A stretch of DNA of 40,769 nt, taken from Vicugna vicugna. Taxonomy: Eukaryota. Location: NCBI GenBank assembly GCA_013265495.1, contig MU057796.1, positions 806,001-846,769 of the forward strand, written 5' to 3'. Both the position numbers and the translations under genes were made by a program. Below are positions 2,641 to 33,091 of the stretch, in pieces. Under the pieces are notes generated by a model, which saw nothing but the letters and a program-made list of their open reading frames with translations, searched no databases and was not told where the DNA came from. Positions within the stretch are counted from its first letter, which is position 1. Each line of letters opens with the position of its first letter.

Positions 2641-3956
2641 AACAGTAATACCATCTGCTGCCATAGGTTACTGTAGGTCCGGGGGATTTAAGAGTTTAAA
2701 TTAATGGAAAGGATATAAAGAGTCCACCTAGAAATAAGGAATTTTTTGACTATCAGACTGATATTTGCCCAGGTGCTGATATAATAACTTTTACCATTTA
2801 AAAACGTCAGATAATCATTTTTTTCTTGAATTTTGTAAGTGTTCATGTGCGTAAAGAGCAGTGGCTTATTGTTAGCTGTGTTCTTAATAAAATACAGTAG
2901 TTAGACGACAAAGAGCCTTTCTTGGCCCAGTTCTTCATAATAAGAGAACCCAGAAAGTGATTGTAGATGGATAGGAGAGTTAGTACACAGCGGATGCCTG
3001 GGGAATGAATTCTCTGGCCGAAATCAGTGGAGAAAGGCTGGGAGGATCGTGGAAGTGAATTGTGCAGTTATGGCAATAGGAAGAGAAAAGAAGTCCAGGG
3101 GTTAATACTAATCATTGTAGTGATTACAGCAAATTGTATCCTTCAGAGACTTTTCCTCCTACTGCCTTACTTCACTTACTCATTTAGAGTGCTGTTTCTA
3201 TGCATAAAAAACCTCAGTGGACTTCGCTATATGTTTCCTACCCTGTCTTCTCTGCTGACACAGCACAAATCAGCACACAGCAGTGGGTTCTTGTGGAGGT
3301 AGCTAGGACTTCCTGCGCATAGTTTGGGAAATCATGGAAGAGTAAGAAAAAATGACCAGTGACCTACCTACTTTCAATTGATGGCATTAACTGAATTCTG
3401 TTTCTAACATTGGCAATGAAGAACATCAGACGCTCAAGAGCATTTGATAATTGATTTAAAATCTGTTTCATAGTGGTTCCCACATTATTTTCATACGTAT
3501 AGTTAGTGAATGAAGAGGCAATATAAAACATAGAACAAAGTGACTTTAAAGGGAAATTCTACTTAAAGCTTACAGGGAAATTATATCCCAGTTTTTTGTT
3601 TTGTTTTGGAAGGACTCTTAATAGCACTTTAAAATGTTATCTGCAAGTTAAAATGTAATTTAGATATGCATGATTATTCTTGAAGCTCAAAGATTCTTTG
3701 ATTACTTGTGACAGCAGATTGCTCTTGATAATAATGAAGGGTATAAGAAATAAGCTTTAAAGACCTTTTCAGTAATGAATTGCATACTTATATCTAGTTA
3801 AGGAACTGAGCACAGGCCTTCCTTGTATTTCAGTAGGTGTTTAGAAGCATAGCTAATGTTACAACATTTTAAAAGGTTATGGTGAGCAGACAGCTAGGTG
3901 AGAAAGAGGTACTTGTTTCGTGACTACTGGATATTAGATAGTCCCATTGTAGCAGT

Positions 3957-3987
3957 TGTTTTGTTTTGTTTTGTTTTGTTTTGTTTT
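3957..3987. repeat. (GTTTT)n microsatellite
   Basis: About 6 tandem GTTTT units. Confidence 0.9.
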
Positions 3988-4454
3988 CCTTCTCTTCTGT
4001 AACACTTTGCCAGTTAAAGCTAGGTGAGGCTAGATAATTTTGAAAGCTATATTGTTCAGCAATCCCTGTTCACCAGTAAATTGGCTGAGAAAGGGGTTGT
4101 TTGCTCTAACGTTCCTCTGATAAAAAGCATCTGATTATATATGACTAATGTAGAGAACTACTTTTAGAGTAAATGTAATTTTGATGATCAATCTGAGTTT
4201 TTAAACATAGCTAATTAAAATAATATTTAAGTATTTGACTTAATGTTTAGAATCTCTTGCTAGTGGGGGGACCTAAAAGTGTTTCTGGTATAATACACAT
4301 TGAACTTTTCTCCTAAGTGCTACTTACTAGGGATGAAGAAAAGAAAATGCTTACAAGTATCCTAGAATTATATCATTAGAATCTCTTTATTTATATCTCA
4401 ATATTTTTTTGAGGGTAGGGGATTACTGTATGTTTAAATTTTACTTTAGAAGGT

Positions 4455-5334
4455 GTTTTGGGGAGGGGTTGGTTTTTTGGGGTTTTTTTTACAACTGGAT
4501 GCTTTTTATTGCATAGGACAATGGTTGCAGGCCACAAAGATTCGGGAAGACCCACTGCTTGGGCCCCACAAAAGGCAGTATTCACCCTCTCAGTTAGGAG
4601 TCTTCTGGGGTTGGCGGGGATAGGCTTTTTCCCGCATGGCTCTGGTGGGAAGTCCACGACAGTACTCAGTTCAAGAAGAGGCGCGTCCGAGCCTAGCTGT
4701 AGAGGGGTGAGTGGATAAGGTGGGCCAGGCTCATTTCAGGTACCTGGGTGTGACCCTGAAGACGCGGGTGTGGATGGCCGAGTTGCTGCGAATGCGAGTC
4801 AGCGGCTCTCGCGTATCGGTCTCTGGTTCCAGCTCATCAGCAGGCTCCACGGTAGAAGTACTGGCGGCCACCTGCAAGGGCCCGAAGCTGCCAGCCTGCA
4901 GCTGGAGGGCAGTGCTGATGGCGCGGTTGATGGCCAGGCCCAGGCCGTGAATGTAGGTCTCAGTGCGCGCGTTCTGACCCCGCGCCCCTCCGTCCAGCAG
5001 CAGCGGGCCAGCTGGGCCTTAAAGTCAGTCTCCGTGTTGACGTAAATGTCATCGGGCCTCCGGGGCCGACGGTGGGGAAGCCGCGTCCGCAGGGTGTTAC
5101 TCCACCGGGTCCAGCTCAGTCTCCACGGCCCCGCGGGGCTCTCGGTTTTCGGCCGTGTTCTGTGCTTCTCTCCGGCCCGCAGTTTCCGCCCCGCGCCCGC
5201 GCCCGGCCGCTTCAGCGTAGCGCCGACCGGCCTGCAATGGAGGCTGCTGCCCGCGGGCCCCAAGGAGGGAAGAGAAAAAAGGCGCGCGCCGCAGCCCTAG
5301 CGGCACCTGGCTCCTGAAAGGGTTGCCGAGCGCC
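4455..5334 (-). pseudogene. POP7: Processed pseudogene of POP7 (RNase P/MRP subunit p20), intronic and antisense to MINDY3; former CDS 5156..4740
   Basis: The minus strand encodes AENREPRGAVETELDPVE...DIYVN..TDFKAQLARC...YIHGLGLAINRAI..ALQLQAGSFG.LQVAA.TSTVE..DELEPETDTREPLTRIR.NSAIH.RVFRVTP. The start is ATG->ACG. There is a +1 insertion near 5097 giving TAA, a 7-nt deletion near 5000, and loss of the stop. AATAAA at 4510-4505, eroded poly(A) at ~4455-4490, and TSD TAGAAGGT at 4447-4454 and 5335-5342 beside a TTT/AAAA L1-endonuclease site. Confidence 0.95.
4680..5334. promoter_or_regulatory. CpG-island-like segment formed by the POP7 retrocopy
   Basis: Very GC- and CpG-rich (gcgcgc, ccgcgg, cgccga) against an AT-rich, CpG-depleted background. 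Confidence 0.7.
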
Positions 5335-7077
5335 TAGAAGGTTTTTTTTTTTTAAAGATAATTTTAATGATATTCTTGGGAATAAGCACAAAGGGACATA
5401 TTTCTCTCTCTCTCATTAGATTGTGACCTTAAATGTATAGCCTAAGTTCTTATCTGATAGGCTTGATAGTATTCAAAACATTGAGTGGTGGATAGTTATA
5501 TAGGAAGAATAAATATGTAATCTAAAAGCTATTCCATATTAAGTGTTGGAAATGGAAAATCAGTGTAGAATCCTCTTCATGTTATTGTTCACACTTACAC
5601 AGTTTTTACATGAGAGTTCTAATTTACTCTTTCCTTTCTAATTAAATCATTTCCTTTATGTGCAATGGCAAAAAATTGGCAGTTACATCTCACTAAAGTA
5701 TGTTGTCTTGAGATTGTAATTACAGGATTCTTTCTCAATTAATAGAATTCTATACTGACTGTTCAAACTTGCTATGCAAATATGAAATCTGTTTAATATT
5801 AACATATTGCCAGACTGGATAGCTAGATCATTCTACTCCAGATCTTTAAACTGGGAACCTTGTTCAGAAGTGTTTAAGTTAAACTAATTGGTAAAAATGA
5901 GTGTTGGAATTTGTACTTTTAAATCAAATTAGAAAGTTAAATGGAATTCAGCATGAAATTGTATAATGGTAATAGGAGGTGGTTTTGTAACTTTTCCTCA
6001 TTTTATCTATAAACATTTAAACATATAAATTTAAACAAACTTTACAAGATCTTTTTCAGTAATAATCTAAAAAGCATTGTAAACACTCAAAATAAGCCAA
6101 GCCGATAATCAGTCTAGAAGATTGTACTGGTTTTGATTTGTAGATGAAAACTTTTGAATGTTTTCATTGGAACTCACTGTAGTTTTTTTTTTTTAAACCT
6201 TCTTTTCTTTTTTTCCCCTCTAGTATAAACACATCTTAAAATAAGTGATATGATTAAGAACCGTTAATTTCTACGGAGTTTAACTAATTAGCTATTAAGT
6301 ATATCACTGAGAGCCAAGGAGCAAAACAAGATTGTTTTCCTAATCATCCAAGACCCAACTGGCTTCATTAGTAATGACAGTTACAGTTGATGGCTTTTTT
6401 ATGTGGAACCTGAGCACTACCACTCGGTTGTATTTTGGGAGGAAAAAAGAAATTTCTGGTTAGGTAGTTTACATCTGGGTTTTTTTGTTGTTTCCTCACA
6501 TACAGGGTTTTGACATAACTTGTTTCACACTTTTAAACTTCAAGCTATAAATTCTCTAAATTCCTTTTTGGAACTACTCTATTTTGACGTCTTTGAAGTT
6601 ATCTGCTTTCACCTGTTTCCATATCTTACCGGGTGGTTTCTCCAGCCCTGATCTCCTTTCTCTTGGCCTGTGAGAAGCCTACGATTGGCAAACACTGGGT
6701 GTTGACAGTGATAACCATGTGCTCTACGTGGGTGTTTAACCATCACCTTCAAACTGAATGTTGAAAATCAATTCATTCTTCCAACAGAGCTGATTTCCCT
6801 GCCTAATTACTCCTTTTCTTTCACAGTTCTCAGTCCAGTTCAACTCTTTCGGTTCCCCCTTGTCCCCTGCTAATTCGCATCTTTCTACCTTTCATGGTTC
6901 TGTTCCTCCTAGCTAGAATTTCCTACCTTTTTTTCTCTTTCAGATGAGAGCCAACATATCTTCTTTGTAAAACCTATTCAGGTGATTAAGACATCACTAT
7001 ATCCCCAGATATGTCAAAAGAAGGCATGTTTGCTAAGTGTTAGAGCATTTGGGGAAAAAAATAAAATGTATCCTCTG

Positions 7078-7265
7078 AATCGTGGATCGGCAAACTATGA
7101 CCCACAGGCCAAATCAACCCCGCCACCTATGTTGTAAAATATTTATTGGAACACAGCCATGTGCATTTGTTTATGTATTGTATTATCTTGCTACTTTATG
7201 ATCAGCAAAGCCTAAGAGATTTACTTTCTGGCCCATTACAGAAAAAAAAATTTGCCACCCTTTGC
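7078..7265. mobile_element. hAT-Charlie MITE, MER58A-like
   Basis: ggcaaactatgacccacaggccaaatc...ttattggaacacagccatg...tttactttctggcccattacagaaaaa..tttgcc with degenerate terminal inverted repeats. Confidence 0.8.
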
Positions 7266-8329
7266 TCTAAATTAACACCTGTTAAACCAGAGTACACCAA
7301 GATTTTTGCCCAAGCTTCACTTGATCTTTCTATATCAGGCCAGGCCAATTCAAACAAGAATTAACTACACATTTTCTAGAGCCTAAATTTTTTTATATGT
7401 TTATAACCAGAGGCATAATAACAGATAAGCAGTGAACATTTCATTAAGTCTCCTTTAATTTCTTTTAAGCATGGTGTATTTTTTATTTGTAGTACTTGGA
7501 ACTTAGAGATGAGGCATCAGGTAGTTCATGTTTAAATTCTTTCTGTGCTCCTGTGTTTTCTGAAATCTTTAATGCCAGAGAATTTGATGCAAACATTTTT
7601 CTATAACTAAAACTGGAATCTTCTTTCTTGCCTCCACTTTATAAACAATGGTAATTTCCCAAAACTTCATTTTGTAGAAAATTAAAGTAATGCTTCAGTT
7701 TTATTCTCTTCCACCTCTTCCTCCAAGAGTCTGGTTTTTTTTTTTTTTTTTGACTAAGAAAATGATATTCCCTTTCCATCTATTTAGATCATAGTTTTAA
7801 TTAGTATTTAGAAAATTTGAAGTCATGTTTTAGAACTCATTTCAAACTTCCTCATCACTTACTAGTAACAAAGATTGAAATGCAACAGATAGTGAATGGA
7901 AGGAATGTATCTTCATCTTGGGCCCTCATATGCTCCCCTTGCATAAAATCTCATCTGCAGCTGTACACTGTCTCCTCAGCCAGAATTTCAGTGACGGTGC
8001 TCATTCACAAATACCAGTAGCCATTCTAAGGGGAGGAATTGAAGGAAAAAAGAAAAAGTAGGGTTAGAAATAGTTAAGGGGGCTAAAGCTTATTCTGGAA
8101 TACATGTAGAAATATTTCCAGTTAAGGTTTGGGAGTGGTAAAAGAAGGTAAGGAGTAATAATGAAGATAGCCCCAATGTTAATAATTGCTCCCTAAATCT
8201 GAGCGCCTACACTGCAATCCTAGCTTTGATATAATGTTAATTACAGAGCAAAGGCTTTACTGATGATACATTAGAGAAAGGAAAGCATTAAGAAATCTCA
8301 TTCAAAATAAGTTAAATGAACAAATTAAA

Positions 8330-8620
8330 CCCAAGAATCTGGCAGTAGCTTCCAAAATCACAAATGCTTTCTTCCTTTGGCCCAGCGATCCTACTCTGGA
8401 ACTCTGTCCTACAGATACAACTGTTCATGTATGAAATTACACATTCAAGTTTATTTGGTGCAGCATTGTTTGTAATAGCAAAAGATTAGACACAATCCAA
8501 GTATTCAGCAGTAAAGGACTAGATCATAAAATCAGAAAGGCATTGAGAAAGTTCAACCGGATGAAAACATGTCCCTTGTCATGTGTATAATAATCTACAA
8601 AATAATATGAAAAAGCAGGA
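8330..8620 (+). mobile_element. Old L1 (L1ME-like) 3' fragment
   Basis: cctttggcccagcgatcctactctggaactctgtcctacag...cagcattgtttgtaatagcaaaaga resembles the L1 ORF2 end. Confidence 0.65.
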
Positions 8621-9599
8621 AATACAGCCCCGGAAAGTTGCTACCAGGGGATGGTAAATGGGAAGTAGTTGTGCCTTACTAATTTTTACTGTTACAAAAT
8701 ACCAGATTTTTAAAATTATTTTAATACTTAGTTTAATACATTAAAAACATTTAGAGGCTTGTATATATTGCCTTGTTTTGATTCCCATTCCCATTTGATT
8801 TTTACTCCCATGTAAACTGAAGATACTATTATGGTGTTCAGGTACCTACTCTCATGTTTGAGTAAGAATTACACTGACTCCTAGAGTTCATTCCTTCACC
8901 TTTGAGCTAAGGATGGGATGATTAGGACAAAAGTTAATTAGTACATTTCTTTTTTTAAAAAAAAAAAGTGTTTCCACAGAGAAATAGCAATTTAAATTGT
9001 ATTTAACATTTATACTCTACAACTTCTTAAAAAGGATTCAAGAATGATAAAAATTGGAAATTTGTTCTGTGATGAAGTTTGTCTCAGTGAACACTGTTAC
9101 AGGCAGATGCTTGGACCAGATTTATGAAAAGAGGAAAACAATTACAGTGTAGATTCTAGATTCATGTCAGTCAAGTAATAGAATTTCATAATAGGTAAAG
9201 TGTGTGGGATACAGGTTTGTGAAGGATCCAAATAACACTGAATTTTGTGTTTATTTTTGATTAATTGTAATACTGCTTACCTTTTAAAGAAATTAGTCAT
9301 GATAGAGAATTAGTTTTATGGGAAAAAGAACTCTGCCTTTTGGATATTTAAGAAAAGTTAAAATTCTGAACATGCAAGAGCTAGATTGTTGATCTGTGCA
9401 TAAGTATTGAAATAAAATGCTTCCTAAATAACTTTCAAATGCATTCCTATGTAATTATTTGCTGTCATATCTCTTGATTTGAGTTTTAAATATTTGAAAA
9501 TGAGTATATTTTCAGTTATATTTCTTTTTACTTGGACAATAATATAAAGCAAAACTATCAGTCATTAATTGTAGATTCCACCTAATAGTATTACCAATA

Positions 9600-9770
9600 T
9601 AATATTAGACTTTTCAAGCTTTATATAAAACTTTATTTCATTCTTACAACAATTCTCTGTGGTTATAGTATTCCCATTTTTCAGATGTGAAATGAAGGCC
9701 CAGAGAGTTTGACTTATCTAGCTATACGCTTATGATATAAATAGAACACATAGTCTTCTGACTCCAGATG
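9600..9770 (-). mobile_element. MIR SINE relic
   Basis: Core attcccattttcagatgtgaaa..aggcccagagagttt...tctgactccag. Confidence 0.6.
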
Positions 9771-9859
9771 TCATCATTTCTTCACCCTAGCCTAATTTGT
9801 TTGTTTTTAGTGTCATGTGTATTATAGCTCATTGATAGCATGCTTTTTTATCTTTTCAG

Positions 9860-9932
9860 GATATGGCTTTAGTTGCCCCTGAGGCTCCTTCAGAACAAGC
9901 CAGAAGAGTTTTTCAAACTTACGATCCAGAAG
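9860..9932 (+). CDS. MINDY3: MINDY3 internal coding exon (73 nt): DMALVAPEAPSEQARRVFQTYDPE+G
   Basis: Acceptor tttttatcttttcag, donor G|gtaaaa. Translation matches the recalled MINDY3/FAM188A sequence. The phase-1 end fits the next exon. The preceding exon was not found in the window. Confidence 0.96.
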
Positions 9933-10803
9933 GTAAAAGATTTTATTATTTTATTAACTCTGTGTTTTATATCTTTATGTATTCGAAATATATTGATACT
10001 TTCCTGAGTTTTATTTTAAAGAGTTATTGGATTAGTGAATGAACGGTAGCTCACATTTCTTGAAAACTTTAAATGGGAAAGGGTGAAAATGGGAACAAAC
10101 TAACAGAATACTTCATTGATCATCAGAGTCTCACGTGGTATAAGGTTTTCATGTTTCTTAGGGTACGAATGTTATGGTTACTTGAATCTTGACCTCTGAT
10201 GATGTTAAACAAGGAAAAAAACTACCTCTGAATAAGCTCTTTGAAAGTTAAGTCATTTATTTATTCAAATGAATAAATGTTCCAGAATATTTTTTAATTG
10301 AGATATAATTTATATATAACATTATTTTTGTAAGGTTAAGGGATACAACGTGTTGCTCTGACATATTTATATATTACAGAATGATTACTACATTAGCATT
10401 AGGTGACACCTCTATCACGTCACGTAATTATTTCTTTTTTGTGGAGAAAATGGTTAAGATCTAGTCTCTTTAACAATTTCGAAGTTTATAATACAGTGTT
10501 GTTGACTGTAATCACCATGTTGTGCATTAGTTCTCCAGAACTTAACTACTGTTTGCAAGTCTGTACCCTTAAACATCTCCCCAGTTAACATACCTCAAGC
10601 CCCCAATAACCACCACTGTTACTCTGTTTTTACAAATTCATCTTTTCTAGATTTCACATGTGCTGTTGTGCAGTATTTGTCCTTCTGTGTCTGCCTTATT
10701 TCACTTAGCGTAATGCCCTCAAGGTTTATCCATGTCGTCATAAACGGTAGGATTTCCTTCTTTCTCATGGCTAAATGATACCCCATTGTAGGTGTGTGCA
10801 CAT

Positions 10804-10832
<29 letters not shown>
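10804..10832. repeat. (CA)n microsatellite inside the L1 3' UTR
   Basis: About 14 CA units. Confidence 0.9.
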
Positions 10833-10834
<2 letters not shown>

Positions 10835-12942
10835 CTCGTGACCTATATTTATCCAGTGATGAGTACTTAAGTTGTTTCCATATCTTGGCTGTTGTGAACA
10901 ATATTGTAGTGATTGTAGTTGTGCCAATACCTCTTTGCTACTGATTTCAGTACCTCCAGATACATAATCAGGAATGGAATTGCTGGATCATATGGTAGTT
11001 CTGTTTCTAATTGTTTGAGGAATCTCTATACTGTTTAATAGGTGTATCATTTTATATTTTCACCAACGGTGAATAAGGTTTCCCCTTTTTTTCCATAGAC
11101 TCAACCAACATTTAATCTCTTGTCTTTTTGATAAAAGTCATCCTAACAGATAGGAGGTAATATCTCACTGTGGTTTTGATTTGCATTTTCCTGATGATTA
11201 GTGATATTGAACATCTTTTCATATACCTGTTGGCTATTTGTATGTCTTCTTTAGAAAAATGTCTATTCAGGTCCATTGCTAACTTTTTAATTGGATTATT
11301 TGTGGTTTTGCTATTGAGGCCTATGGGTTCTTTATGTATTTTGTGTATTAACCCCTTATCAGATAAATAGGTTGCAAACATTTTCTCCCTCTGTGTAGGT
11401 TGCCTTTTCAGTTCATTGATTGTTTCCTTTGCTGTGCAGAAGCTCTTTAGTTTAATGTAGTCCTGCTTGTTTTATTTTAGTTTTTGTTGCCTGTGCTTTT
11501 GCTGTCTTATCCAAGAAATCATTGCCAAGACCAATGGCAAGGATCTTCTCCCCTACAATTTCTTGTAGGAGTTTTATAGTTTCAGGTCTTAGATTTAAGT
11601 CTTTGATCCATTTCGGGGTTTTTTTTTTTTGTGAGTACTGTAAGGTAGGGGTCCAGTTTCATTCTTCTGCATGTGGATATCCGTTTTCTCTAGTACTATT
11701 TAATGAAGAGACTATCCTTTCCCTATTGTGTATTCATGGCATTCTTACAAAAAAAATAGTTGACCATGGGTTTATGTCTGCGCTCAATATTTTGTTACAC
11801 TGGTCTGTGTGCCTATTTTTATGCCAGTACCATATTCTTCTAATTATTGTAACTTTACAGTGTAGCTTGAAATCAGGTAATGTGATACCTCTGGCTTTGT
11901 TCTTCCTTCTCAAAATTGCTTTGGCTATGCGTTATCTTTCATGGTTTCAGACAAATTTTAGAATAGTTTTTTCTATTTCTGTGAAAAATGTCATTGGAAT
12001 ATTGATAGAGATTGCATTGACTGTGTAGATCGCTTTGGGTAGTATGGGTAGTATGGACATTTTAACACTATGAATTCTTACAATCCCTGAGAACAGAATA
12101 TCTTTCTATTTATTTGTATTTTTTCAGTCTCTTTCATCAGTGTCTTATTGTTTTCAGTTTCTTATATTCCCTTGGTTAAACATACTCCTAAGTATTTCAT
12201 TGTTTTCAGTGCTATTGTAAATGAGGTTGCTTTTTAAATTTTTCTTTCAAATAATTCTTATTGGTGTAGAGAAATGGAACTGATAACAGTATATTGACTG
12301 TGTATCCTTCAAAATTACTGAAATCATTTATTCTGGCAGTTTTTTAGTGGTATCTTAAAGGTTTATATGTACAATCAAGTTATCTTTATAATTCTTGGTG
12401 TATTATTGTTCATAGCAGTTTCTTCTGACTGTGTTTCTCTGGTATCAGTTGTAATATATCCTTTTTAATCTCTAATTTTATTTGTCTAATTTGTTTATCT
12501 TGTCAGAAAGCCACTCTTGATTTTGTTGTCCTTTTCTATATTCCTATCCTCTATTTCATTTCTCTTTTCTGATCTTTGTTATTTCCTTCCTTTGTAAACT
12601 TTGAGCTTACTTTGTCTTCTTTTTTCAGTTGCATGAGGTGGTTTACTTGAGCTCTTTCCTGTTTCTTAATGTAGGCACTTACCACTATACCCTTCCCTCT
12701 AAAAACTGCTTTTGCAGCATCCCTTAAGTTTTAATACATTGTGCTTTCATTTTTATTTGTTTCAAGATATTTCTTGATTCTCCTTTTGATTTCTTTGACC
12801 CACTGATTATTCAGGAGCTTGTTGTTTAAACCCAATATATTTGTGTGTTTTCCAGGTTTCTTCCTATCACTAATTTCTAGTTTCCGATCTTTCTGGTAGG
12901 GAAAAATAGTCGGTATGATTGTACTTCTTTTAAATTTACTAA

Positions 12943-13045
12943 TGTTCATGTATAACTGGAATATTGTGCTCTACACTGGAATTTGACACAACATTGTAAA
13001 ATGACTATAACTTAATTTAAAAAGTTTATATATAAAAAATTTAAA
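12943..13045 (+). mobile_element. Short, 5'-truncated young L1 3' end nested in the older L1, opposite orientation
   Basis: tgtataactggaatattgtgctctacactggaatttgacacaacattgtaaaatgactataact followed by an A-rich tail. TSD taaattt(a/c)ctaa at 12931-12942 and 13046-13057. Confidence 0.75.
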
Positions 13046-14054
13046 TAAATTTCCTAAGATATTTTCTGTCCTATCATGTGATCTGTCTTGGAGAGTGTTT
13101 CATGTGCACTTGAGAAGAAATGTGTATCCTGCTGCTGTTACACAGAGTGTTCTGTGTGTGTCTATTTGGTACATGTGTTCTAAAGTGTAATTCACACCCG
13201 CTATTCCTTCTTCATTTTCTGTCTGTGTAATCTTACTGTTTTTGAAAGTGGGGTATTGAAATCCCCTACTTTATTCCACTGCTGTCTGTTCTCCTTTTAG
13301 ATCTGTTATTAATAATCATTTATTTAGGGGCTGCATATATGGTATGTGTATACTTACAATCATTAAATCCTCCTGATATCTTGATCCTTTGATCATTGTA
13401 TAGTGACCTAGTTTGTCTCCTGTTATTTTTTATTAGAAAATACTTTGTGTGACATAAGGATGGCTACCCCAGTTCTCTTGTTCCCTGTTGGTGTGAAATA
13501 CCTTTTTCAATCCCATCACTTTCAGCCTGTCAGTATCCTTTAAGTATGAGCCTTTAGGCAACATATAGTTGGGTTTTGTTTTATTCATTCAGCCACTTTA
13601 TGTCTTTTGATTGAAGGAGTAAAACTATTTACGTTTAGAGTAAACGTTGATAAGTAAGGACTTACTGTTACCGTTTTGTTGATTACTTTCTGATTGTTTA
13701 TATAGTTCTGTAGTTTTTTCTTCCTCTGTTGCTTTCTTTGTGACCTGAATTTTTATAATACTAGGCTTTGATTCTTTTCTCTTTATTGTGTATCTATTAT
13801 AGGTTTTTGCTCTTTGGATATTGTGAAGCTTTCATAATACATCTTAGTCTTATAACCATCCATTTTAAGCTAACAACAACTTAACTTCAGTTACATAAAA
13901 AAGTTCAATGCATTTACCTGCCTTATAGTTTTGATATCCCAATATACATCTCCCTATATTGTGTACCCATTAACATATTATTGTAGATATAGTTATTTTT
14001 AACCTTTTGTCTTTTGCTAGAGTTCAAAGTGATTTACACACCACCACTACAGGA

Positions 14055-14968
14055 TTGTTTTTGTTTTTTTAAGGTGTAACTGATGTTTAACATTATATTA
14101 GTTTCATGTGCACAACATAATGATATTTGTATGTATGGCAGAATGATCACCACAGTAAGCCTAGTTGGCATTAACCACCATACATAGTTACACGTTTTTT
14201 GAGTGTGATGAGAATTTTTAAGATTTATTCTGTTAGTGACTTTCAAATAATCAGTACAGTTTTATTAACTATAATCAACATGCTGTACATTCCATCCCCA
14301 TGACTTATTTTATAATTGAAAGTTTGTACCTCTGACACCTTTTACCCATTTCACCTACCTCCCCACCCCTTACCTCTAGCAACCACCAGTCTGTTCTCTA
14401 TCTATGAGCTCAGTTTTGTTTTGATTCCACATATAAGTGAGATCAGGCGGCATTTGTCTTCCTCTGTCTGATTTACTTCACTTAGAATAATACCGTCAAG
14501 TTCCATCCATGTTGAGGCAAAGAGCAAGATTTCCTTCCCTTTTAATGGCTGAATAATACTCCATTTAGTAATATATACCAAATTTTCTTTATCCATTCAT
14601 CCATTGATGGACATTTAGGTTGTTTCCATATCTTGGCTATTGTAAACAGGGTTGCAGTGAACATGGAGGTGCGTATTCCTTTCCAGGTGTGTGTTTTTGG
14701 GTTTTTTTGTTTGTTGTTTTTTCCCTTCAGATAAATACCCAAAAAGTGAAATTATGGATGATATGGTAGTTCTGTTTCTGATTTTCTGAGGTACCTTCAT
14801 ACTGTTCTCCACAGTGGCTGTACCAATTTACATTCCCACCAGCAGTTCACAAGGGTTTCCTTTTCTCCCCGTCATCGCCAGTACTTGCTATTTCTTATCT
14901 TTCTAATAATAGCCACTGTAATAAGTGTGAGGTGATGCCTTGTTGTGGTTTTGATTTGCATTTCCATT
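14055..14968 (-). mobile_element. Second 5'-truncated LINE-1 (3' UTR plus ORF2 end)
   Basis: T-rich tail at ~14057-14070. ORF fragments MFTATLFTIAKIWKQPKCPSMDEWIKKIWY and FASTWMELDGIILSEVNQTE. Confidence 0.9.
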
Positions 14969-16269
14969 TAGCAGAGGCTGCTGTGGGGACGGGTGCCCTT
15001 TGTCACCCTCTTCAGAATATTTGTAGAAAAACTGACCTGCAAGGAAGCTAAAGAAAAGAGAATTAAAATTCTGGTATCCCTGAGTATTTGTGTATCTGAC
15101 TCACTCTCCCCACCTCACCCTTGCTCCTGCTCCTGGGTTCTACCCATGTGTCTGACAGGTAGACCTGTACCTAAACCTGTTGCCTAGACCCATACATTGT
15201 TAGCACCATGCTTTAGGCATATTATGAATTGAAAGTATTTGCAGGCTAATCACCATTTATTGCATTGCTTCTGTGAGACTGCCTTTTCAAGGTTGTAAAT
15301 AGTCGATTTGTTAATGGTCTTTTGGAACATAAAGCTGATTTATTACTTGAGACCTGTCTTAAAAAAAAATAATGGTATTGTCTGGCCTTTGCATGAAACA
15401 TTATAATTTATAAATCAGTTTACCTCCATGGTCTCATTAAAACCTTACCATAAACCTAGGAGATAGACAAGGAACTACCATCAAGATTTTATTCCTAAGA
15501 AAACCAGTCCTATGACAGTTTAAGTCACTTCTTCAGAGCTACATACCTAGTTGTAAGAACTGAGACCACATTCTAGCTGTTCTTCCAGGAAATCAAGCAA
15601 TCTTTCCCCTTCTCTCTACTACATATGTCTGTTTAGAAGGCTGAAGTGATAAAGAGGTATTTTTTAACCTCTTTGTCTTCTTTGAATTATTTTTAATTTA
15701 TTAGAATAAGTATATGATATTGACTATCATTCTCATTGAGCAATTGGAGTAATCTCCATTTTAGAGTCTTTAGGATCTTGGGAGCTCAATAATTATTTTG
15801 ATGCCAAGTACACATATAAAACAAGTTCAAAATACATTTTTAGCTGTTAGTTTCTCTTTTGTAATACTTCTAAAATCTTCATTTCAGCAGGACCTGGACA
15901 TACCACCTCTAATTACTTGGTTCACTTTAATAAGTAATTCCAAATTCAGAAATGAAAATAAACCCTAGTATGTGTGCTTATATCCTAAAGAGAATCAGAT
16001 GTTGGAGCCATATAAAGTGTTACATATGGTCTTTAGAAAGTCCATGTTTTGTTTCCTGGGGACTTGGTGTGGGGGTTGGGAGTTGTTTTTGTGTGTGTGT
16101 GTTTTGTTTCATTTTGTCTTTTACATTTTTTTGTTGAGGGGGTGGGGATTGTTTGGGTCTTTGGTTTGTATTCAGTTACATGTTGTACAGGAATTTTTAA
16201 AAATAACCATAAAAGAGTAGGGATGGAGATCAAGTGATCAATGTGATCAAAGATACTGGACAAGAGAGG

Positions 16270-16445
16270 AGTTTTGGAGTACCTCCAGGTGTCAGCATTC
16301 CAGTGGATATCAGAGAACCCGGATTTAAATCCCACCTCTGTTACTCATTAGCTTTGTGATGTTGGGCAAGTTGCTAATCTCAGTTTTCTCAGCTGTAAAA
16401 TGGACTTTATATCTACTTTACATCATTATTCAAGTACTCAATAAA
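16270..16445 (+). mobile_element. MIR SINE relic
   Basis: ggatttaaatcccacctctgttactcattagctttgtgatgttgggcaagttgctaatctcagttttctcagctgtaaaatgg. Confidence 0.75.
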
Positions 16446-17154
16446 TTGACTATATTGTTTTGTTTTAAAAAGAAGAAAAATCCAAAACTGTGGAGCATAG
16501 AGCTTATTCAGGAATCTCCAAAGAACTGAATTCTATATAGATGGTAATTGAATTTTTTTGCATTACATATAATGGGGTTTGTTTTGTTTTCTTCCTTCTT
16601 ATTCTCTTTCTTCACCCCACCCTGTGTAGAATTCATCAACCATTTGGGCAAGGGATATATAATCTTTGATTTAAAAAGAGCCCTTTTTTTTTGTTTTTTT
16701 GTCTTGTTTTGTTTTGTTTTGAGGTTGCTACAATATATTGACAGCGTATTTTGTCTGAATGATTTCAGTGTGGTACTTTTTTTTAATCTTTAAGAATAAT
16801 TTTACTTGTAGATTAGTATACACCAATCCTTAGACATGATCTAGAAATTGCCTTTTGTTTGTCATTTAAAATGACATTTTCTTCTCTCTACCCTTGCTTC
16901 CTCCCTTCTGTCACTGCCATCCACCTTGCTCTACCATTGTTAACATTGTGTCTTTCATGCTGCCCCAGCCATTGTTTTTCAACATTCTGCATGGTGTTTT
17001 GTTTGGTTTGCAACTTTTCCATCACATAATTAAAGTGGTTCTGTAGGACAGGCCATACATTAACTGCTCATTTCTCTCTGAACTTCCTATGTACAGTTCA
17101 CAAAGCTGGTTTTGGTTGAACCCTGGGGCCTGAATGAGCAGTTTGTGTACCTTG

Positions 17155-17290
17155 AAATTAGCATTCACTTGTATCATTAAGTGTAGCGAATGTTACTGAG
17201 TGGCTACTTGTGTGAAGCATTGTGCTGGGCCCCAGGGTTATGGAATCCCCTGCCATCCAGGAGCCCCCATCTGCAGGGAGCCAGATGGCA
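17155..17290 (-). mobile_element. L2 3'-end relic
   Basis: cattcact...ttactgagtggctacttgtgtgaagcattgtgctgggccccaggg...cctgccatccaggagc. Confidence 0.55.
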
Positions 17291-19900
17291 AACTGGCAGA
17301 GACTGAGGACAGTGCAACTACAAAAATGCCTTAATTGCCAATGAGCAGAAGTCACATTTTTCATTAAGAGTTACATTAAATTGTACGTATATGTTATTAA
17401 AGCACTAATAATAATTAGTTAGGTACAGCATGACACAGCATTTAGTAAAAATAATTTAACTCTTACTTGACTAAAACCAACAGCATTAAATTCTCCTTAA
17501 CTAGATCTCATTTTTCTCTTCTATTCCTAAGAAACATGACTCCTCACCTACAGGGGTTTGTAAACGTTATGGTCTCCATCTCCTCACAAACTTTAAAAAA
17601 TAATAATAATTAAAACAACCAACCAAAAACCTCCTTTTAAATTTTTAAACGAACAGCTTCTTTCCTCCTTTTCAAATGTCTTAAAACATAGTTTAACTGA
17701 ATTTGAACATGTACACAGTAGGTGCTTACACCATCATAACTGCCTCTTTTCCTCCCCACTTCATTTTCCCTGTTCTTCTGAGTTTAAGCTCGTAGAGGCT
17801 GTTTTATATCCATATGGTTAAATTACCAGTGCATCTTAGTGCTGCTTTTTCTTTCAGTGCTTCTCAGGTCTACTTGAGCAGTGCACAAACTGTAAGCTCA
17901 GATTTCTTCTCCTGTTGGTATTAAGGTCTCCTTATCATTGTGTCTCTGTTTCCATTTTCTCTAAGGAACCAATTGAGTTTCATCTGCTTAGACTTAAGAT
18001 TTCTGTTCTTTTTTAAAGAATTTGTCTTGATAGGTATGATTATTGAAGAATAAAGTAACTTCAAAATAAATATTTTAAAAAGATGAGCGATTCCAAATCT
18101 CCTCTTCTAATCTTGGGTGTATTAAAAAGTCTTTGAGGTATTGAAAAAATTTTTTATGCTGCAATCTCCAATTATAAAATACTGTCTACAAAAAGCAGAG
18201 TCATTGGCTTGGTGTCATCATTGTTGTACTCCAGAATGTCTCTGTTTACAAGTTATAAGTCTCATCGGTCCCTTAAAAATGTGTTGGGATGTTTAAGCTT
18301 GAGGTTAATCATGTTTAAGGAGGTCATTTTGTTGTTTTCCTAGTTGTTTGTGTCTTTGTACAGCCAGTTAGCTCTTTCTGAGGATGGGAGCTGGGTCTTG
18401 GGTTACAGTAAGAAGAGACAGGGCTGCCTGCCATTCAGTGCTCCTGAAGAGTGTTGTAATACACACTGCTTCTGTCAAGTGGACACACATGATAGCCTGT
18501 AAATACAGAAACTCTCCAGATAACTGTTCCTGTCTGCTAGTGACGGATAAAGCCTGTTTTACATTTGAAGATGCTACGCTTTTAGCTGTGACCTGACTCT
18601 AGGCAAAATGAGTAATTTTTTCCTACCTTTCAAACTCATTAGAGTTAGGCTTACAAAGGTTGAATATTTTCACAGGTACCTTCAAACAAGTTCTTCATTC
18701 TCTATATCTTCAAGTATTGGTAAATTGACAATTTATTCTAAACCTTCACTTTATAAAATTATATTTAGGCTGATTTTTAGTTAGCCTTTTAGTCAAAGCT
18801 AGTCTGTCTTCACATGGTAAGCAAGTGCTTGTGAGGTTTAAGAAAAGACTTTTTAAAAATCGTATCTTCTTTATTTCCTCTCTGGTAGAGACAGAGTATA
18901 TACTGTGTGTGAAAAGAGCAACTACACTTTACACTGTAGTCTGATGATAAAAGCAAGACTTTTGGACATCTTGTTCTCCAGGACAAGATTTTTTTTTTTT
19001 AATCCTAATCCTTGAAAAGGATATTGTGTTGGAAGTTCATTTAAAGCTGAGACAGTCTTCAGGAATGAATTAATGGTAGAGGAACACAGGCATTGTACAT
19101 GTAAGGAAATATACAACTTGCTTGTTTAAAAGTACTGTGAGTTCCAGCTGCCCTACAAGCTTTTTTTGTGTGTCATGTTCTATTGCATCATTTGAGTTGG
19201 AGCCATTTAGCAATGCTGTTTTTTTGAGCCCAAGAAAAAGAATATTTTCCATAAACTAGTCTTTCATCAGCATTTGATTCTACTCTTGTATTCCAACTTT
19301 GAATCTTCTTCCCCTGTTAAATCTGTGGCTTTTACTTAAATTAAGTCTGTTGATTTTAAGTCAAGGGATATCTTTTCTTGATCTTACATTGTTGGAGAGC
19401 TAAATAACAGGGGGTCATGAACATTCTTGCAGAAAGTTAAATAACTTTGTAACAAAAGGAATGTGTTGGTAAAGGATTATTTTAATTGGATTTCTTAAAG
19501 GGAATTTAAAGGTTTGCATTGTTTACTGAAAAAATATACCTATTTGATAAATAATTGTTATAAATATAAGTAGAAAGAAACCTTTATCATTTAAACTTGT
19601 AAGCCTTGTTTAAGAAGGAATTTGTCTTTAAGGTTTTCTTGGAGTTCTCAGGTAGAAGTCATATGGTTAATTTTTGTATTAGAAACTAACCTTTGAAAAT
19701 AAGTCTTTGCCTGTGTGCCCAAGAAAGCTCATAGAAAAGAGTGCCTAATAATAATAAACATTGTGCCCAAAATAAACGTTAAATGCTGTTCCTTAACTCT
19801 GTGTCCCTCTTAAGTGAGTTTTCACTGAAGTCTAATCAGCAATAATAGCATTTCTTAAAGTAAACTTAATCCAGATTGTTATCTCTTTTTTTTTTCCCAG

Positions 19901-19973
19901 ATAATGGATTTATACCTGATTCACTTCTAGAAGATGTGATGAAAGCGTTGGACCTTGTTTCAGATCCTGAATA
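19901..19973 (+). CDS. MINDY3: MINDY3 coding exon (73 nt): (D)NGFIPDSLLEDVMKALDLVSDPE(Y)
   Basis: T-rich tract ending cccag, donor TA|gtaagc. In frame with both neighbouring exons. EF-hand-like segment. Confidence 0.96.
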
Positions 19974-21448
19974 GTAAGCTACCTAGGAATTGTTAGTTAA
20001 CCGACTGATTCTGTTGAATGTGTGACATTATCTGCACATTACCGCCTCTTTTTTTAAAATCTAAACTGTATAAATGAAGCGTAGCACTTCATATGAAGCA
20101 AAGATTTCGGAAGCAAGCAATCAGACTAATCAATATTGTAGTACAGACTTGACCTACTTAAAATGAGCTTCCTTTCCCACTCTGCACTGAAGTCCTGCTT
20201 TAAAAAAGGGTGCTAAGAATGTAAGTGCCTTTTTCTATATTAAATGTTTTTTCTCACTGTGAAACCTGTATTTTGAAATTCTGTGCATGTCTGTATAGTA
20301 CCTTTAGTGAAAGTAGTGACAGTTTTGCAGAATGTCTCTACCATTAGGCTTCCTGCTTAAGTAACCAGCAGGCCTCTGACTTTCAGTCTTAAGTAAAAAC
20401 ATTGAATATTTTAAATACCCGAATCCGTTGGCCCCACTATATTTCAGAATATAGTTTTCAGTTTTGCCTAACATTAATATCCTGTCATTGTCTCTATTCT
20501 GTTATATTCTGTACATTATTACATCTACAACTTCTTCCATAAATTTGGGATCTTCATTATCCATGGGAAAATATCTCTCGGGTTAAGTGGATACGTCATA
20601 TTAATACATATGAAAATTAAAAATCACCTATGAGCTACACTAACTTTTCCTTTTTCTGCCTGGTTTAATTATTTTTTTTTCTTCTGAAAGTGTATCTCAC
20701 AATAAACAAACGTTAGCTTACAAACATTTAAGAAAAGGATTCAGCAGAAGCAACATAAAACACATTGGTATGCATAGTTCTTAAAATTTGATGCTATCCT
20801 GTTTTTAAATAGTTTGTATTTTCTTTGAAAGTATAAAATACATATAAACATTTGCAAACTAATTGAATTAATGTGCCTCGCTCTCACTACACGGTGCTGT
20901 GATGTTATTCTTTCTTAGTAGACATAGTTGTTGATTCCAACTTAAAGAGGAGAAATTCAGAGACAGTTGAACTGTTCCAATAAATGGTGTAACTGTAACT
21001 ACCATATTTCCTCTCAGCTGATTTCCAAGTGGAGACCATCTTGTTTACCTTTGATAAACAGAGTTGAACTTAGGTAATTTTGATTACTAATAATTCTTAA
21101 GATAGGAAGGAGGAAAAAGGAAAAGTTAGGTTTATTTGGTTTTTTCCCCAGATTCTTAGATGGTTATACATCATCTACTTAATTGTCCTTGTTCCATCAG
21201 AATTCATAACATACCTTGAATTACAATTACAACTGAGCTAGTAAATTGTTTTTCTAGAAGTAGCTGAAAGATTGGACTGAGTTATTCATGTGGTCGTTTG
21301 ATCTAATCACATGTATAACAACCAGGCCATAGTAAGGATAAATAAATATATTAAATATAATAATATAATCTTGCTTTCATTTGTTTCATGCCGTAACCTC
21401 CTGTCATTACTCAGACCCATTAAAATGTCATATCCTCTGCATGTTGTG

Positions 21449-21765
21449 CAGTTGACCCTTGAACAGCTCAAGGGCTGGGTCACCGACCTCTGTGCAGACC
21501 AAGATCTGCATATAACTTTTGACTCCCCAAAACTTAACTACTAGTAGCCTATTGTTGACCAGAAGCCTACCGATTAATACATATTTTGTATGTTATATAC
21601 ATTATATATTCTGTTCTTAAAGTAAGATAAAGAAAACAAAATGTTGCTAGAAAAATCATAAGAGAAAATATATTTATGGTACATACATGTATTTGTTGGG
21701 AAAAAAAAATCCATGTATAGGTGGACACTGCGGTTCAGACAGCCCCATTCTTCAAGGGTCAACTG
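21449..21765. mobile_element. Tigger2-derived MITE (Tigger2a/MER28-like)
   Basis: Perfect 15-bp terminal inverted repeats CAGTTGACCCTTGAA (21449-21463) and TTCAAGGGTCAACTG (21751-21765). Internal tataacttttgactccccaaaacttaactact. Confidence 0.85.
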
Positions 21766-22569
21766 TCTAATAAGGTCTATTTAACCTGACATTTATACTT
21801 TGGGAGATAACACAGAGAATCAGAATTTTCTGAAAAGACCATTTTTATTTTTGAAACTCTTCCAACCGCAGCCCACTTTCTGCCTTCTCTAAGTCACACG
21901 TAACACCTTTCAGCAGCCTTGGCTACGCCTCATGCACGGCAAGGGCTGTGCAAAGCACAGCTCACTTCAGCCTGCACCCGAGACAAGACAGTCCACACCA
22001 CTTACTGAAATTCACTGTACTTTAGCTCTTTTACAATATCTTACCTCTTCAGTTTGCACTAAGAATTTTAAGCCTCCACCCCATTTGGTTCTTGAAAGCT
22101 AGCTTTTTAGGAGATGTTTTTGATTATCTGGTGTACCACTGCCCTTGACACTGCTTTTCTCCTTGGACTTAAAGTAAACTTTCTTTTTTTTTAAGTTAAA
22201 TGCCTCATTTGATAGTCAAATTCAGGCATACTATGAAGCAAAGAAAACTTGCCTTTGGGAGTTTATAAGCCTGCGTTTGTAAGCCTGGGTTTTTAAGTTA
22301 CTTTACCTAATAAGGAACAATATTCCAAAGTTGTCATCATAATTTAAATTCTAAATAGTAACACATTACTCTGGTTTAAAAATAACCAAGTTTTGGCAAA
22401 TTAGATGTCATTCCTGTGTATTTGTCATTAAGGGTCTAAAAAGAACAGCTCTTAGGATATTTTGCAGTCAAATGTGGTGCGGTACTAGTGATTTAATCAT
22501 GAAAGGACAAAAGTAAGCTGCTTTTTTTTTCCCTTTGGTATCTACCGTTTCTTTTTTCTACCCCTCTAG

Positions 22570-22657
22570 CATAAATCTCATGAAGAATAAATTAGATCCA
22601 GAAGGATTAGGAATCATATTATTGGGTCCATTTCTTCAAGAATTTTTTCCTGATCAG
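22570..22657 (+). CDS. MINDY3: MINDY3 coding exon (88 nt): (Y)INLMKNKLDPEGLGIILLGPFLQEFFPDQ
   Basis: Acceptor ttttttctacccctctag, donor CAG|gtaata. Frame continuous. Confidence 0.96.
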
Positions 22658-24186
22658 GTAATATAGCTGAATAAATATATTTATTGTTTTGTTCTGTTGA
22701 GATGATCGTATTATAATTGTTTCAGCATTTTTTTCTACTAGTGTTTTAAAATGTTCAACCATGCAGATACAAGAATAAGAAAGCACTATTATTATGTAAA
22801 TACTTTCCTGGGCAGAGAGGATGCAGGGTATGTGTGTTCCAATACAGTAATGCAAAACTTTGGGGGACTGGGGTGGTGGAAGAAAATAAACACACCATTA
22901 TAGATACATTGATACTGTTTTTCTGAAAGAAGGATAAATTTCAGAAGTATGTGGAGTAGAAGGAGAAGGATTCCCTTTATCCACTCCCACCCGTTTTCCT
23001 TCTCTTGCATGACTGCCATGAATAGGTTGGTGTGTATCTTTAGAAATTTCTAAACACAAGGCAAGAAGGTAAAGGAGCCTGTGAGTAATGTGAACTCCTG
23101 TGAGAGCTCCTAAGTGCCAGGAGAACTCTACTTGAGTAAAAGGGAAACCTTCGGGTGGAGCTGTGCTGTTTCATGTTGGGGCGTGTCTGCCACTGGCTGT
23201 GACAGGAGCTCAGTGAAAAGAATCTTTGCCGGTCGGTGTCTGTACTCTTGAGTTATGTCTGCGTCACTGACAAGCTAATTCTGCAGCCTCCATCGGTCAT
23301 TTCTTCCCATCTAAGTGAAGGGTTTTACCACTCAGCCAAATCATTTAGCCAGTTATATTGTGACCATTTCATCAGATACCAACATGGTTTAAAAGTTCGT
23401 TGTTTTAATAGAAATGCCAGTTTATATTCTACCGTTTATAAAAGTAGAAAAAGTGTAACAAAATGATGGAGGGACCATATTAAGATAAAATATTAAATTA
23501 CAAGATATAATTACCAGTTTAAATCGGAGACATTCAATCTTGGTAATTAAAAAAGAAAAAGAAATCCTTGTTTTCTAAACCTGTGTCTATCTGTTGTGGT
23601 TATTGTGAGTAAAGACAGTGAGGAAAATTCAAAAAGTAAGGAGAGCACAATATAGCTGTTAACTGTCTTCAATTTTTATTAAATGCTTCAGGAAAAAGCT
23701 TTTCTTTCTCCTCACATTGTTAGGAAGACTCCATTGGATTGTAAGGCCCTCATACTCCAACTACTAGGGTTTTTGGAAAGTTCTTTTTGGAATCTAGTAC
23801 TGTGTTTTAGATATCTTAGTACATGTAATTAATTTAGTGATGTAAGCTTTTGGGGGCTATTTTGAAAAGTTCTTGGGAAACGTAAACAAAGTGAGATAAT
23901 TACCAACTCTTTTGGAAATACATATCTGTATCTATATCTTACATTTAGTTAATTATATGATGTTGCTTATAATTATTCTATGAACTTATTAGCCAAGAAA
24001 TTAATTTTTTCATTGTAATATTCCTTGAGGTAATTAAAGGGAATTCTAATCCCCTTCACAGATAACAGACTCTTCTTAGTTGGTTATTCTGTTTATTCTC
24101 TCCAAGTTCATCTCTTACTGTTTGTTTTTTTCCTCCCATTCTTCTAAACAGACTCTGCATCTGAGCTTGCTCTTGGTTCCCTTTAG

Positions 24187-24342
24187 AGCAGTGGGTTCTC
24201 CAAATGTGGTCTCCAAGAACTTATTAGAAATGCAAATTCTCAGGTGCCTCCCCAGCCCTAGTTCATAGGGAGTAGAGCCCACAGTCTGTACATACCAGCC
24301 CCCCAGGGGCATCGGATGGTACCAAAGTTTGAGGCCCGCTGC
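24187..24342. mobile_element. hAT-Charlie MITE, MER5A-like
   Basis: cagtgggttctccaaatgtggtc...ttagaaatgcaaattctcagg...aaagtttgaggcccgctgc. Confidence 0.8.
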
Positions 24343-24764
24343 TTCAGAGGAAGACCTGTCACATTCCCATCTGTTCATGTCCAGTGCGAGCTCAGAGCTC
24401 CCTGTGTCACAGATCTTTTCCAATCACAGCCCACAGCACCAATGTCCTCTTTCTCCATAGTCGAACGTGAACTGACTTTATGACTCGTTTTGGCCATTGT
24501 TCATGTACTGTTGTGTACCTGACAGGTCAGTATAGTGGCAGTAAACGTTTAATCAGCCAGTAATCAATGAGGTAAAGTTGCAAAAATGCGGTCAGGACAG
24601 CCAGGAAAGTATTTACCTACTTTAGTAATCTTTACAAACGCTTAATGTAGGTGCTATGCGGCAGCATTTCTTTGCCATGAGGTAGATGCAGATTCGGGGG
24701 GAAACAGAAGTGGGAATACTGATAAAGTATTTCAAGGCAATTTGCTTATAATAAGAATAGCAGG

Positions 24765-24955
24765 AGCAGCTACCATTTATTAAGCATGTTCAGTGCACCA
24801 GGCACTACGGGCCTTACCAGTTAGGTATTATTTTTCCCCCATTTTGCCGATGAGGAAACCGGGGATTAGAGAATTTAGGACGACAGTCATTCAGCTAGCA
24901 CATGGCTGAACCAGGATCCAGTGTAGGTTACCTAACCACCACGTTACACTGCCTT
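24765..24955 (-). mobile_element. MIR SINE relic
   Basis: taccatttattaagc...ccaggcact...cccattttgccgatgaggaaaccggg. Confidence 0.7.
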
Positions 24956-32470: not shown

Positions 32471-33091
32471 AGTTGGCTCTTTTTCTAAAATATTTAGTAT
32501 ATTTATTTTGCCCATCCTTCCACTTTCAGCAGAGCGAGTCCCATCTTTTTGATAATTGTGTACTGCCCAGTGCACCCCCATTCTACTTTAGTGGGTGTTT
32601 TTTTCTCACTGCTGGCAGGGAAGTCAGTAATCTACAATTTTGATAGTTTTCCATGTTTAAGGTATTCCTCTGTCCTGATAACAGGAGCATCCAGAAACAC
32701 AAATTATGATGCAGACATATAAATGTCCTTTTCATGGGAGAGACTTCTGAGTCATCACTGAATGCTCTAGAAGCACAGTGATGGAGAGGGGTCCCCTGGC
32801 TCTGTATAGATCCTACCTGTAAAGCCCTCCTCTTGTCCCACAAGGAAAGTTATCCTTGTCATGGCCATTCCCACACACAGTGATGCTCAGTATTTGAACC
32901 AGCTAGAGGAGACTCAGCCACGTGACAAATATGCCAGCTTTTTCACCCCTAAAGTTCAATCTTCCCTAAAAGTGCTATCTTTTTTCCTCTCATCAGCACC
33001 GGCTTTGTGAGTTCTTTTTCCTACATAATAAAGCAGACCCCCAGGCAAATTCTGATATAGCCATTCAACTAAGTCTACATTCCTAGGAGTA

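Follow-up and report, generated by a model that had tools for sequence, protein, structure and literature searches.

We analysed a window of 40,769 nucleotides from Vicugna vicugna (contig MU057796.1, positions 806,001 to 846,769 of the forward strand); coordinates given below without a contig are those of this window. On its minus strand, positions 4447-5342 hold a full-length processed copy of POP7, the gene coding for RPP20, the p20 subunit of RNase P/MRP, and it is the direction in which this copy has changed, nearly always from A or T to G or C, that concerns us here. The frame 4734-5018 has matches to solved structures of human RPP20 (6ahr_G, E = 1e-42) and to the Pfam family Rpp20 (E = 5.6e-12). 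We used the retrocopy as a query against the same genome (2.03 Gb, 12,405 contigs), where it matched three places, namely, itself and the two exons of a single parental POP7 on contig C7341, with identities of 92% (copy bases 169-845) and 75% (bases 2-145). An intron of about 250 bp in the parent is precisely missing from the copy; as the two exons are contiguous there (5166/5167), the intron was removed. The parts of the insertion are the following:

4447-4454, no strand: target-site duplication, copy on the 3' side, TAGAAGGT on the plus strand, with an identical 8-mer at 5335-5342; the duplication may reach into the T-run with one mismatch
4455-4489, minus strand: poly(A) remnant of 35 nt broken by C-runs, beginning where the alignment to the parental 3' end stops
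4490-4739, minus strand: part derived from the 3' untranslated region (UTR), including AATAAA, aligned to parental exon 2
4740-5156, minus strand: part derived from the coding sequence (CDS), from the comparison with parental POP7 and human RPP20 and with Pfam Rpp20
5157-5333/5334, minus strand: part derived from the 5' UTR, with 5167-5333 derived from exon 1 and three gaps (19, 7, and 13 bp) relative to parental exon 1
5335-5342, no strand: target-site duplication, copy on the 5' side, TAGAAGGT, followed by the T12 run of the target

The A-rich tail sits after AATAAA and the cleavage site, as it should in a copied mRNA. A first-pass annotation, made from the letters of the sequence, had called the copy dead on account of a lost ATG, two indels, and a premature TAA, and all of these are present: the start codon has become ACG (5154-5156), one added A (a +1 indel) yields TAA at 5097-5099, and 7 bp are deleted from the CDS-derived part near 5000; the old stop codon, moreover, has changed from TAA to TAC (4740-4742). 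The pN/pS ratio between copy and parent is 1.02, which argues that there was no selection on the protein. Intron loss, poly(A) tail, target-site duplication, and a disabled, unconstrained frame together identify a processed, L1-mediated retrocopy.

By sequence, a CpG island is longer than 200 bp, with a GC content above 0.5 and a CpG observed/expected ratio above 0.6. The retrocopy has 844 bp, a GC content of 0.636, and 67 CpGs with an observed/expected ratio of 0.79, and thus has the composition of an island, lying between flanks with ratios of 0.13-0.14. It has kept 44 of the 47 parental CpGs and gained 23 new ones.

Direction of the substitutions in the copy

We aligned the copy with the parental POP7 of the same genome over 842 columns and counted 68 differences, three of which lie at the alignment ends (5334, 4489, and 4486) and were dropped. 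Hereafter, W stands for A or T, S stands for G or C, and the direction is read from parent to copy. The remaining 65 differences comprise 55 W>S, only 2 S>W (4791 and 4733), 7 exchanges between G and C, and 1 between A and T. By type, the W>S changes are T>C (31), A>G (15), T>G (6), and A>C (3), that is, 46 transitions and 9 transversions. The per-site rate is 0.153 at W sites versus 0.004 at S sites (binomial against equal per-site rates, p = 2e-18). The first-pass annotation had named balanced nucleotide counts, or A>G changes on one strand only, as signs to the contrary of its view; the counts are 55:2, and T>C and A>G changes occur on the same strand.

The bias is found all along the copy. 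W>S changes are spread over the 5' UTR, the synonymous sites, the replacement sites, and the 3' UTR, with an even density of 0.12-0.26 per W site in eight bins, up to both edges; in the 3' UTR-derived part, they reach within 7 bp of the tail (4497, 4501, 4512, 4527, and 4531). The exon 1 part has 13 W>S and no S>W, and the synonymous differences amount to 4 W>S, 1 S>W, and 1 exchange between G and C. An excess of W>S over S>W across the classes of sites, which is how tracts due to GC-biased gene conversion (gBGC) are recognised, is thus observed here (18:0 among the polarised changes described below and 55:2 overall). Contexts in which a change creates a CpG are not enriched, with T>C at 11/60 TpG versus 20/120 elsewhere and A>G at 4/58 CpA versus 11/121. 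The sense strand of the copy is nevertheless asymmetric, with T>C at 31/180 sites versus A>G at 15/179 (p = 0.017), equivalent to an A>G excess on the plus strand of the window, and this asymmetry shows that a strand-specific mutational process contributes. According to PMC2927911, an A>G excess on the non-template strand is a known signature of transcribed mammalian DNA, and the asymmetry of the copy matches, in size and direction, the ordinary excess described there.

The polarity of the replacements was established with human RPP20 (PDB 6ahr_G for residues 17-140 and the human UniRef entry for residues 1-16) and with the parental POP7 protein of the same genome. The 17 W>S replacements listed in the first-pass annotation are all present relative to both references, and the parent shares none of these 17 residues of the copy. 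At the 17 sites and at the stop codon, parental POP7 agrees with the proteins of human, pig, bat, and armadillo; the copy is therefore where these 18 changes (17 replacements and the lost stop) arose, and all 18 are W>S, with no S>W, for which the chance under the spectrum of the control retrocopies is about 3e-13. A13T had been taken as the lone change in the opposite direction, wrongly, since T13 is a state of the parental lineage; so are H28 and T67, as had been suspected for S28H and S67T, and no replacement of the copy therefore runs from G/C to A/T. Three distant POP7 loci from a metagenome scan (71, 46, and 45% protein identity) were not used as nucleotide outgroups.

As a control, we took five GAPDH retrocopies from the same genome, polarised at positions where the parent and at least three other copies agree. 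They have decayed in the usual way, with 226 S>W changes (76 of them at CpG), 61 W>S, 26 exchanges between G and C, and 14 between A and T, the last two making 40 GC-neutral transversions. Their CpG retention is 7-52% at 86-95% identity, versus 94% at 92% identity for the POP7 copy. We then treated the control spectrum as the neutral one and used the 8 GC-neutral transversions of the POP7 copy as a clock, which leads to an expectation of about 12 W>S (11.6-12.5) and 33-46 S>W, where 55 and 2 are observed; W>S changes are about 4.5-fold over the expectation and non-CpG S>W changes about 15-fold under it (32.7 expected, 2 observed). A one-parameter fixation bias of B = 4.3-4.7 (95% profile interval 3.2-6.3; likelihood-ratio statistic 126-160 versus B = 0) gives fitted counts of 55.1/2.0/7.9 for W>S, S>W, and GC-neutral changes, next to the observed 55/2/8. 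In other words, the surplus of W>S and the shortage of S>W are both accounted for by a single fixation-bias parameter.

The Camelus orthologue and the surroundings of the copy

In Camelus ferus, C. dromedarius, and C. bactrianus, the proteins with the annotation "ribonuclease P subunit p20-like" include the translated 5' UTR as well as 13 of the same derived replacements and therefore represent the orthologous copy; the top protein match of the window frame has 93% identity. This comparison relies on the Camelus proteins and on the codons of the present genome, used in place of camel DNA. From it, we infer that the insertion is older than the split between the window's lineage and Camelus and younger than the camelid-specific change A13T, because A13T is common to parent and copy. 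Five changes, all W>S, are found in the window's lineage only: K42E, I69T, I84T, L107P, and the change of stop 141 to Y. With 13 shared replacements before the camelid split and 5 later changes in the window's lineage, the bias ran on both sides of that split and was therefore long-lived; the first-pass annotation had supposed a long-lived hotspot, and long persistence is what sets PRDM9-independent hotspots apart from those directed by PRDM9.

In two of the Camelus proteins (P0123 and P0124), the part derived from the 5' UTR is a long Gly/Ala/Arg repeat (GGAGARGRGG...), suggesting that a GC-rich tandem repeat, short in the window (about 5170-5215), expanded in Camelus. "p20-like" proteins of other species (pinniped and Phyllostomus) gave mixed or S>W-rich differences when the codons of this genome served as a proxy, a rough procedure whose results we did not use. 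With the same proxy, the POP7 protein of Pipistrellus kuhlii (P0024) shows mostly differences of the A/T to G/C type (11 versus 1), which hints at gBGC acting on a functional POP7 in that lineage.

The copy had been placed inside a MINDY3 intron. We found one MINDY-family exon (VGSYLKSPKFPIWIVGSETHLTVFFAK; 30 aa, Pfam MINDY-3_4_CD) on the plus strand at C841:797143-797232, 9 kb upstream of the window; its Atlas label reads only "MINDY family" (scores 0.83-0.84), and we treat it as a lead. No MINDY match was obtained in the 150 frames scanned out of 195 with at least 55 aa (both strands, 502-33826), where the matches were Rpp20 (plus a sub-threshold Alba in the same frame) and a weak UfSP2_N, nor in 150 of the 322 remaining plus-strand frames of at least 28 aa in 5526-24780, which gave only a weak NOB1. 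The location in a MINDY3 intron and the related argument from orientation are thus unproven. Two further MINDY-family genes lie elsewhere in the genome, on C9417 and C6135.

The genome also has a PRDM9-like gene on contig C4951, with KRAB, SSXRD, three PR/SET exons, and C2H2 fingers in this order, every one of them in an open frame; an assembly gap of 207 N breaks the finger array, and the gene is apparently intact. Two other elements were seen on the same contig: a ribosomal protein L39 retrocopy-like frame (Pfam E = 1.3e-14) at about 24.2 kb (L009:9159-9398), between the KRAB and SSXRD exons, and gammaretrovirus-like gag fragments (Gag_MA and Gag_p30) at about 43.6-44.6 kb (L011:8606-9583), downstream of the zinc-finger exon.

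Elsewhere in the window, two minus-strand Rfam tRNA matches about 300 bp apart (39918-39990 and 40284-40355; 38.9 and 60.5 bits) may be tRNA genes or the heads of tRNA-derived short interspersed elements, and the region of about 31300-33600, rich in long frames free of stop codons on either strand (the longest 179 aa) and lacking Pfam matches, may represent a promoter or a GC-rich island. Sequence words of 3400-6400 were found at fractions of 0.86-0.88 in 14 DNA runs and of 0.21-0.26 in the RNA runs X16 and X18; nothing is drawn from this on expression or habitat.

Explanations of the bias

In our opinion, the copy probably records long-lasting gBGC at an unmethylated CpG island that the POP7 insertion itself created. 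L1-type retroposition in the camelid stem lineage would have placed a full-length copy of the POP7 mRNA into AT-rich, CpG-poor DNA, bringing along a CpG-rich 5' UTR and 47 CpGs. From then on, the insert would have acted as a CpG island in its own right and escaped germline methylation, hence CpGs that did not decay; as a default hotspot at a hypomethylated, promoter-like site, it would have frequently formed meiotic heteroduplexes, whose GC-biased mismatch repair would favour G/C alleles. Over tens of millions of years, A/T>G/C changes would have been fixed about 4-5 times faster than neutral ones and G/C>A/T changes blocked about 20-fold, with a population-scaled B of about 4-5 and an equilibrium GC content of about 0.97; meanwhile, the reading frame would have drifted neutrally and broken. 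The hypomethylation of the island, its recombination activity, and its independence from PRDM9 are what we infer beyond the substitutions themselves, and the putative hotspot would coexist with PRDM9, given the PRDM9-like gene in the genome, unlike in canids, which lack PRDM9. A wider claim can be put forward more tentatively, and we rather doubt it in its full extent: the 0.85-kb copy might be a natural "transgene" experiment, in which a CpG-rich mRNA copy landing in methylated, AT-rich DNA was alone enough to make a germline-unmethylated island and a default site of recombination or conversion, bounded almost exactly by the insert, active for tens of millions of years beside PRDM9 and switched off in Camelus. 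As for the first-pass annotation, its observation is confirmed, and its interpretation is partly supported.

Several results weigh against long-lasting gBGC. A gBGC effect should fade with distance into the neighbouring sequence, yet GC content does not rise in the flanks, the first 100 bp on either side having 0.25 and 0.30 against a background mean of 0.35 (standard deviation 0.07), with CpG observed/expected ratios of 0.13 and 0.14. This view of the flanks has low power: both 1-kb flanks are single-copy in the genome, hence not polarisable through repeats, and, as a rough bound from the background spread of GC, composition alone excludes only a flux in the flanks greater than about half of that inside. 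Replacements private to Camelus are mostly S>W (Q97K and, in some species, A100T, D35N, and P7L), so that the bias does not belong to the sequence as a fixed property, and its persistence appears to be lineage-specific; the contrast in direction between the window's lineage and Camelus gives a Fisher p between 0.008 and 0.048 according to the scoring of K54L. Of the 55 W>S changes, about 34 lie in the UTRs, where there is no nucleotide outgroup, and some of them could be S>W changes of the parent; when 12 possibly mis-polarised UTR changes are dropped, B is still about 4.0-4.3. The neutral clock consists of 8 sites only, 4 of them in the gappy alignment of exon 1, and, for a large mammal, a B of 4-5 is a high value to be sustained for tens of millions of years.

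The tail adds a last point of this kind. It holds 19 A, 15 C, 1 T, and no G, with A-runs alternating with C-runs (C4, C2, C4, C4, and C1), and 15 C without any G is hard to obtain from the spectrum of the body, where A>G (15) outnumbers A>C (3); the chance is about 2e-12. The C-runs had been read in the first-pass annotation as part of the gBGC footprint: the runs are real (15 C in 35 nt), but their spectrum is unlike that of the body, and they are therefore not to be counted as gBGC changes. They are probably not simple point changes and probably arose from a few events followed by slippage, or at the insertion. On the plus strand, the tail has T/G runs that resemble T4G4-type repeats.

Other processes could leave a W>S excess, and two of them act on mutation rather than on fixation. 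The bias is confined to the inserted DNA and flat to both edges, A>G or T>C transitions make up 46 of the 55 W>S changes, and 13 of the 18 polarised changes are older than the Camelus split, all of which would suit a burst of A:T>G:C hypermutation at or near the insertion, with ADAR-type editing (of the mRNA, the RNA:DNA intermediate, or both) as an example, and the ordinary evolution of an unmethylated island thereafter. Such a burst is, however, quite unlikely: both strands are hit (31 T>C and 15 A>G), it leaves nine W>S transversions unexplained, and five more W>S changes postdate the split of the lineages. Nor is the neighbour preference of ADAR seen, as a 5' G is not depleted at the changed sites (11/46, 0.24, versus 98/359, 0.27, of the A sites) and a 3' G is under-represented rather than enriched (7/46 versus 119/359). 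Above all, a boost of W>S alone cannot produce 2 S>W changes beside 8 neutral transversions, and, compared with the fixation-bias model, one that allows W>S hypermutation only loses 8-10.7 log-likelihood units (2.3-3.7 with exon 2 alone). The S>W deficit also bears on a local mutational bias of the open, unmethylated, or transcribed chromatin of the island, with A:T>G:C mutation up and G:C>A:T mutation down. The retained CpGs show that the deamination route is shut off, and the strand asymmetry of T>C over A>G (31/180 versus 15/179) is what such a bias could leave; a lack of methylation, though, takes away only the CpG share of S>W changes (76/226 in the controls), and the non-CpG remainder would need to be suppressed about 15-fold. 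We know of no germline process that suppresses non-CpG C>T and C>A so strongly, and a transcription-associated A>G excess does not shift GC content this far, which makes a mutational bias unlikely as the whole explanation.

Selection for GC or CpG content, with the island serving as a promoter, an enhancer, or a functional transcript, would agree with the long maintenance of the island and with the long open frame of the orthologue, annotated as a "p20-like" gene in three Camelus species. Chance open frames are, however, expected in GC-rich DNA; the window copy has a broken frame and a pN/pS of 1.02, and a bias that is uniform over UTR, synonymous, and replacement sites is unlike selection on particular motifs, so we judge this explanation very unlikely. 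The sharp limits of the bias, which are also the limits of homology to the parent, point to another candidate, ectopic GC-biased conversion between the copy and the parental gene acting as a filter that erased S>W changes in the copy and spared W>S ones. A filter of this type cannot lift W>S above the mutation rate (55 versus 11.6-12.5 expected); no long identical tract points to a recent event, the W>S changes being even across the eight bins, and parental POP7 has no copy-type states, making the idea highly improbable. We give next to no weight, finally, to an artefact of polarity in which the parental gene, and not the copy, moved from G/C to A/T. About 40 of the 65 differences (UTR and synonymous) have no nucleotide outgroup, and five 3' UTR differences are CpG in the copy and TpG or CpA in the parent; the polarised sites, where the parent equals human, pig, bat, and armadillo, stand at 18:0, and T50 in parental POP7 is the single coding difference derived in the parent. 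Decay of the parent is thus refuted for the coding part by the outgroup proteins, and it may account for some of the UTR differences.

Comparison with known systems

A dead retrocopy is free of protein constraint and starts from a known sequence, the parental mRNA, and it therefore records the local substitution process unusually cleanly. If the hotspot reading of the POP7 copy is true, being CpG-rich is enough for a sequence to create a long-lived, PRDM9-independent hotspot in a mammal that bears PRDM9, sister lineages can differ in such hotspots, and CpG islands can be built up by gBGC. The copy is also a warning for annotation: in three Camelus genomes, a GC-driven open frame has been given the name of a "p20-like" gene, yet the window copy has a pN/pS of about 1.

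PRDM9-independent hotspots in regions hypomethylated in the germline are known: in Joseph et al. (2024, PMC11161765), gBGC peaks are reported in 39 of 52 mammals, many with an intact PRDM9, and these hotspots are said to evolve slowly, together with methylation. Camelids are absent from the text and the four supplementary files of that paper that we examined. Like the default hotspots described there (in the dog, for example), the POP7 copy is CpG-rich, apparently unmethylated, and long-lived, with a very high equilibrium GC content and a PRDM9-like gene in the genome; unlike them, its island was made by retroposition into AT-rich DNA, its flanks have no visible GC rise, and it is a single locus known from sequence alone. 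The nearest parallels at single loci, with locus-specific W>S runs, are the 3' part of Fxy (Mid1) in the pseudoautosomal region of Mus musculus, with 28 of 28 replacements W>S, and an exon of human KIF26B, with 17 W>S, as given in Berglund et al. (2009, PMC2631073). The POP7 copy, with 18 of 18 polarised changes, an equilibrium GC content of about 0.97, and a B of about 4.5, is comparable to the textbook case of Fxy; Fxy and KIF26B, however, are functional genes in that account, moved into or lying in highly recombining regions, whereas the copy is dead and free of protein constraint.

Ordinary processed pseudogenes, such as the GAPDH retrocopies of our control, resemble the POP7 copy in that they, too, are L1-type copies of a GC-rich housekeeping mRNA, but the direction of their substitutions is opposite and they have kept 7-52% of their CpGs instead of 94%. 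Retroelements can also be hypermutated by editing, from A to G by ADAR or from G to A by APOBEC, and have, like the POP7 copy, dense directional transitions confined to the retro-insert; the copy departs from them by changes on both strands, the lack of an ADAR neighbour preference, biased transversions, the S>W deficit, and changes that postdate the split from Camelus. In the open-access literature searched, we found no retrocopy or processed pseudogene described as a hotspot of this type. We regard the POP7 copy as a new, unusually clean case of a process already known, and not as a process of a new kind.

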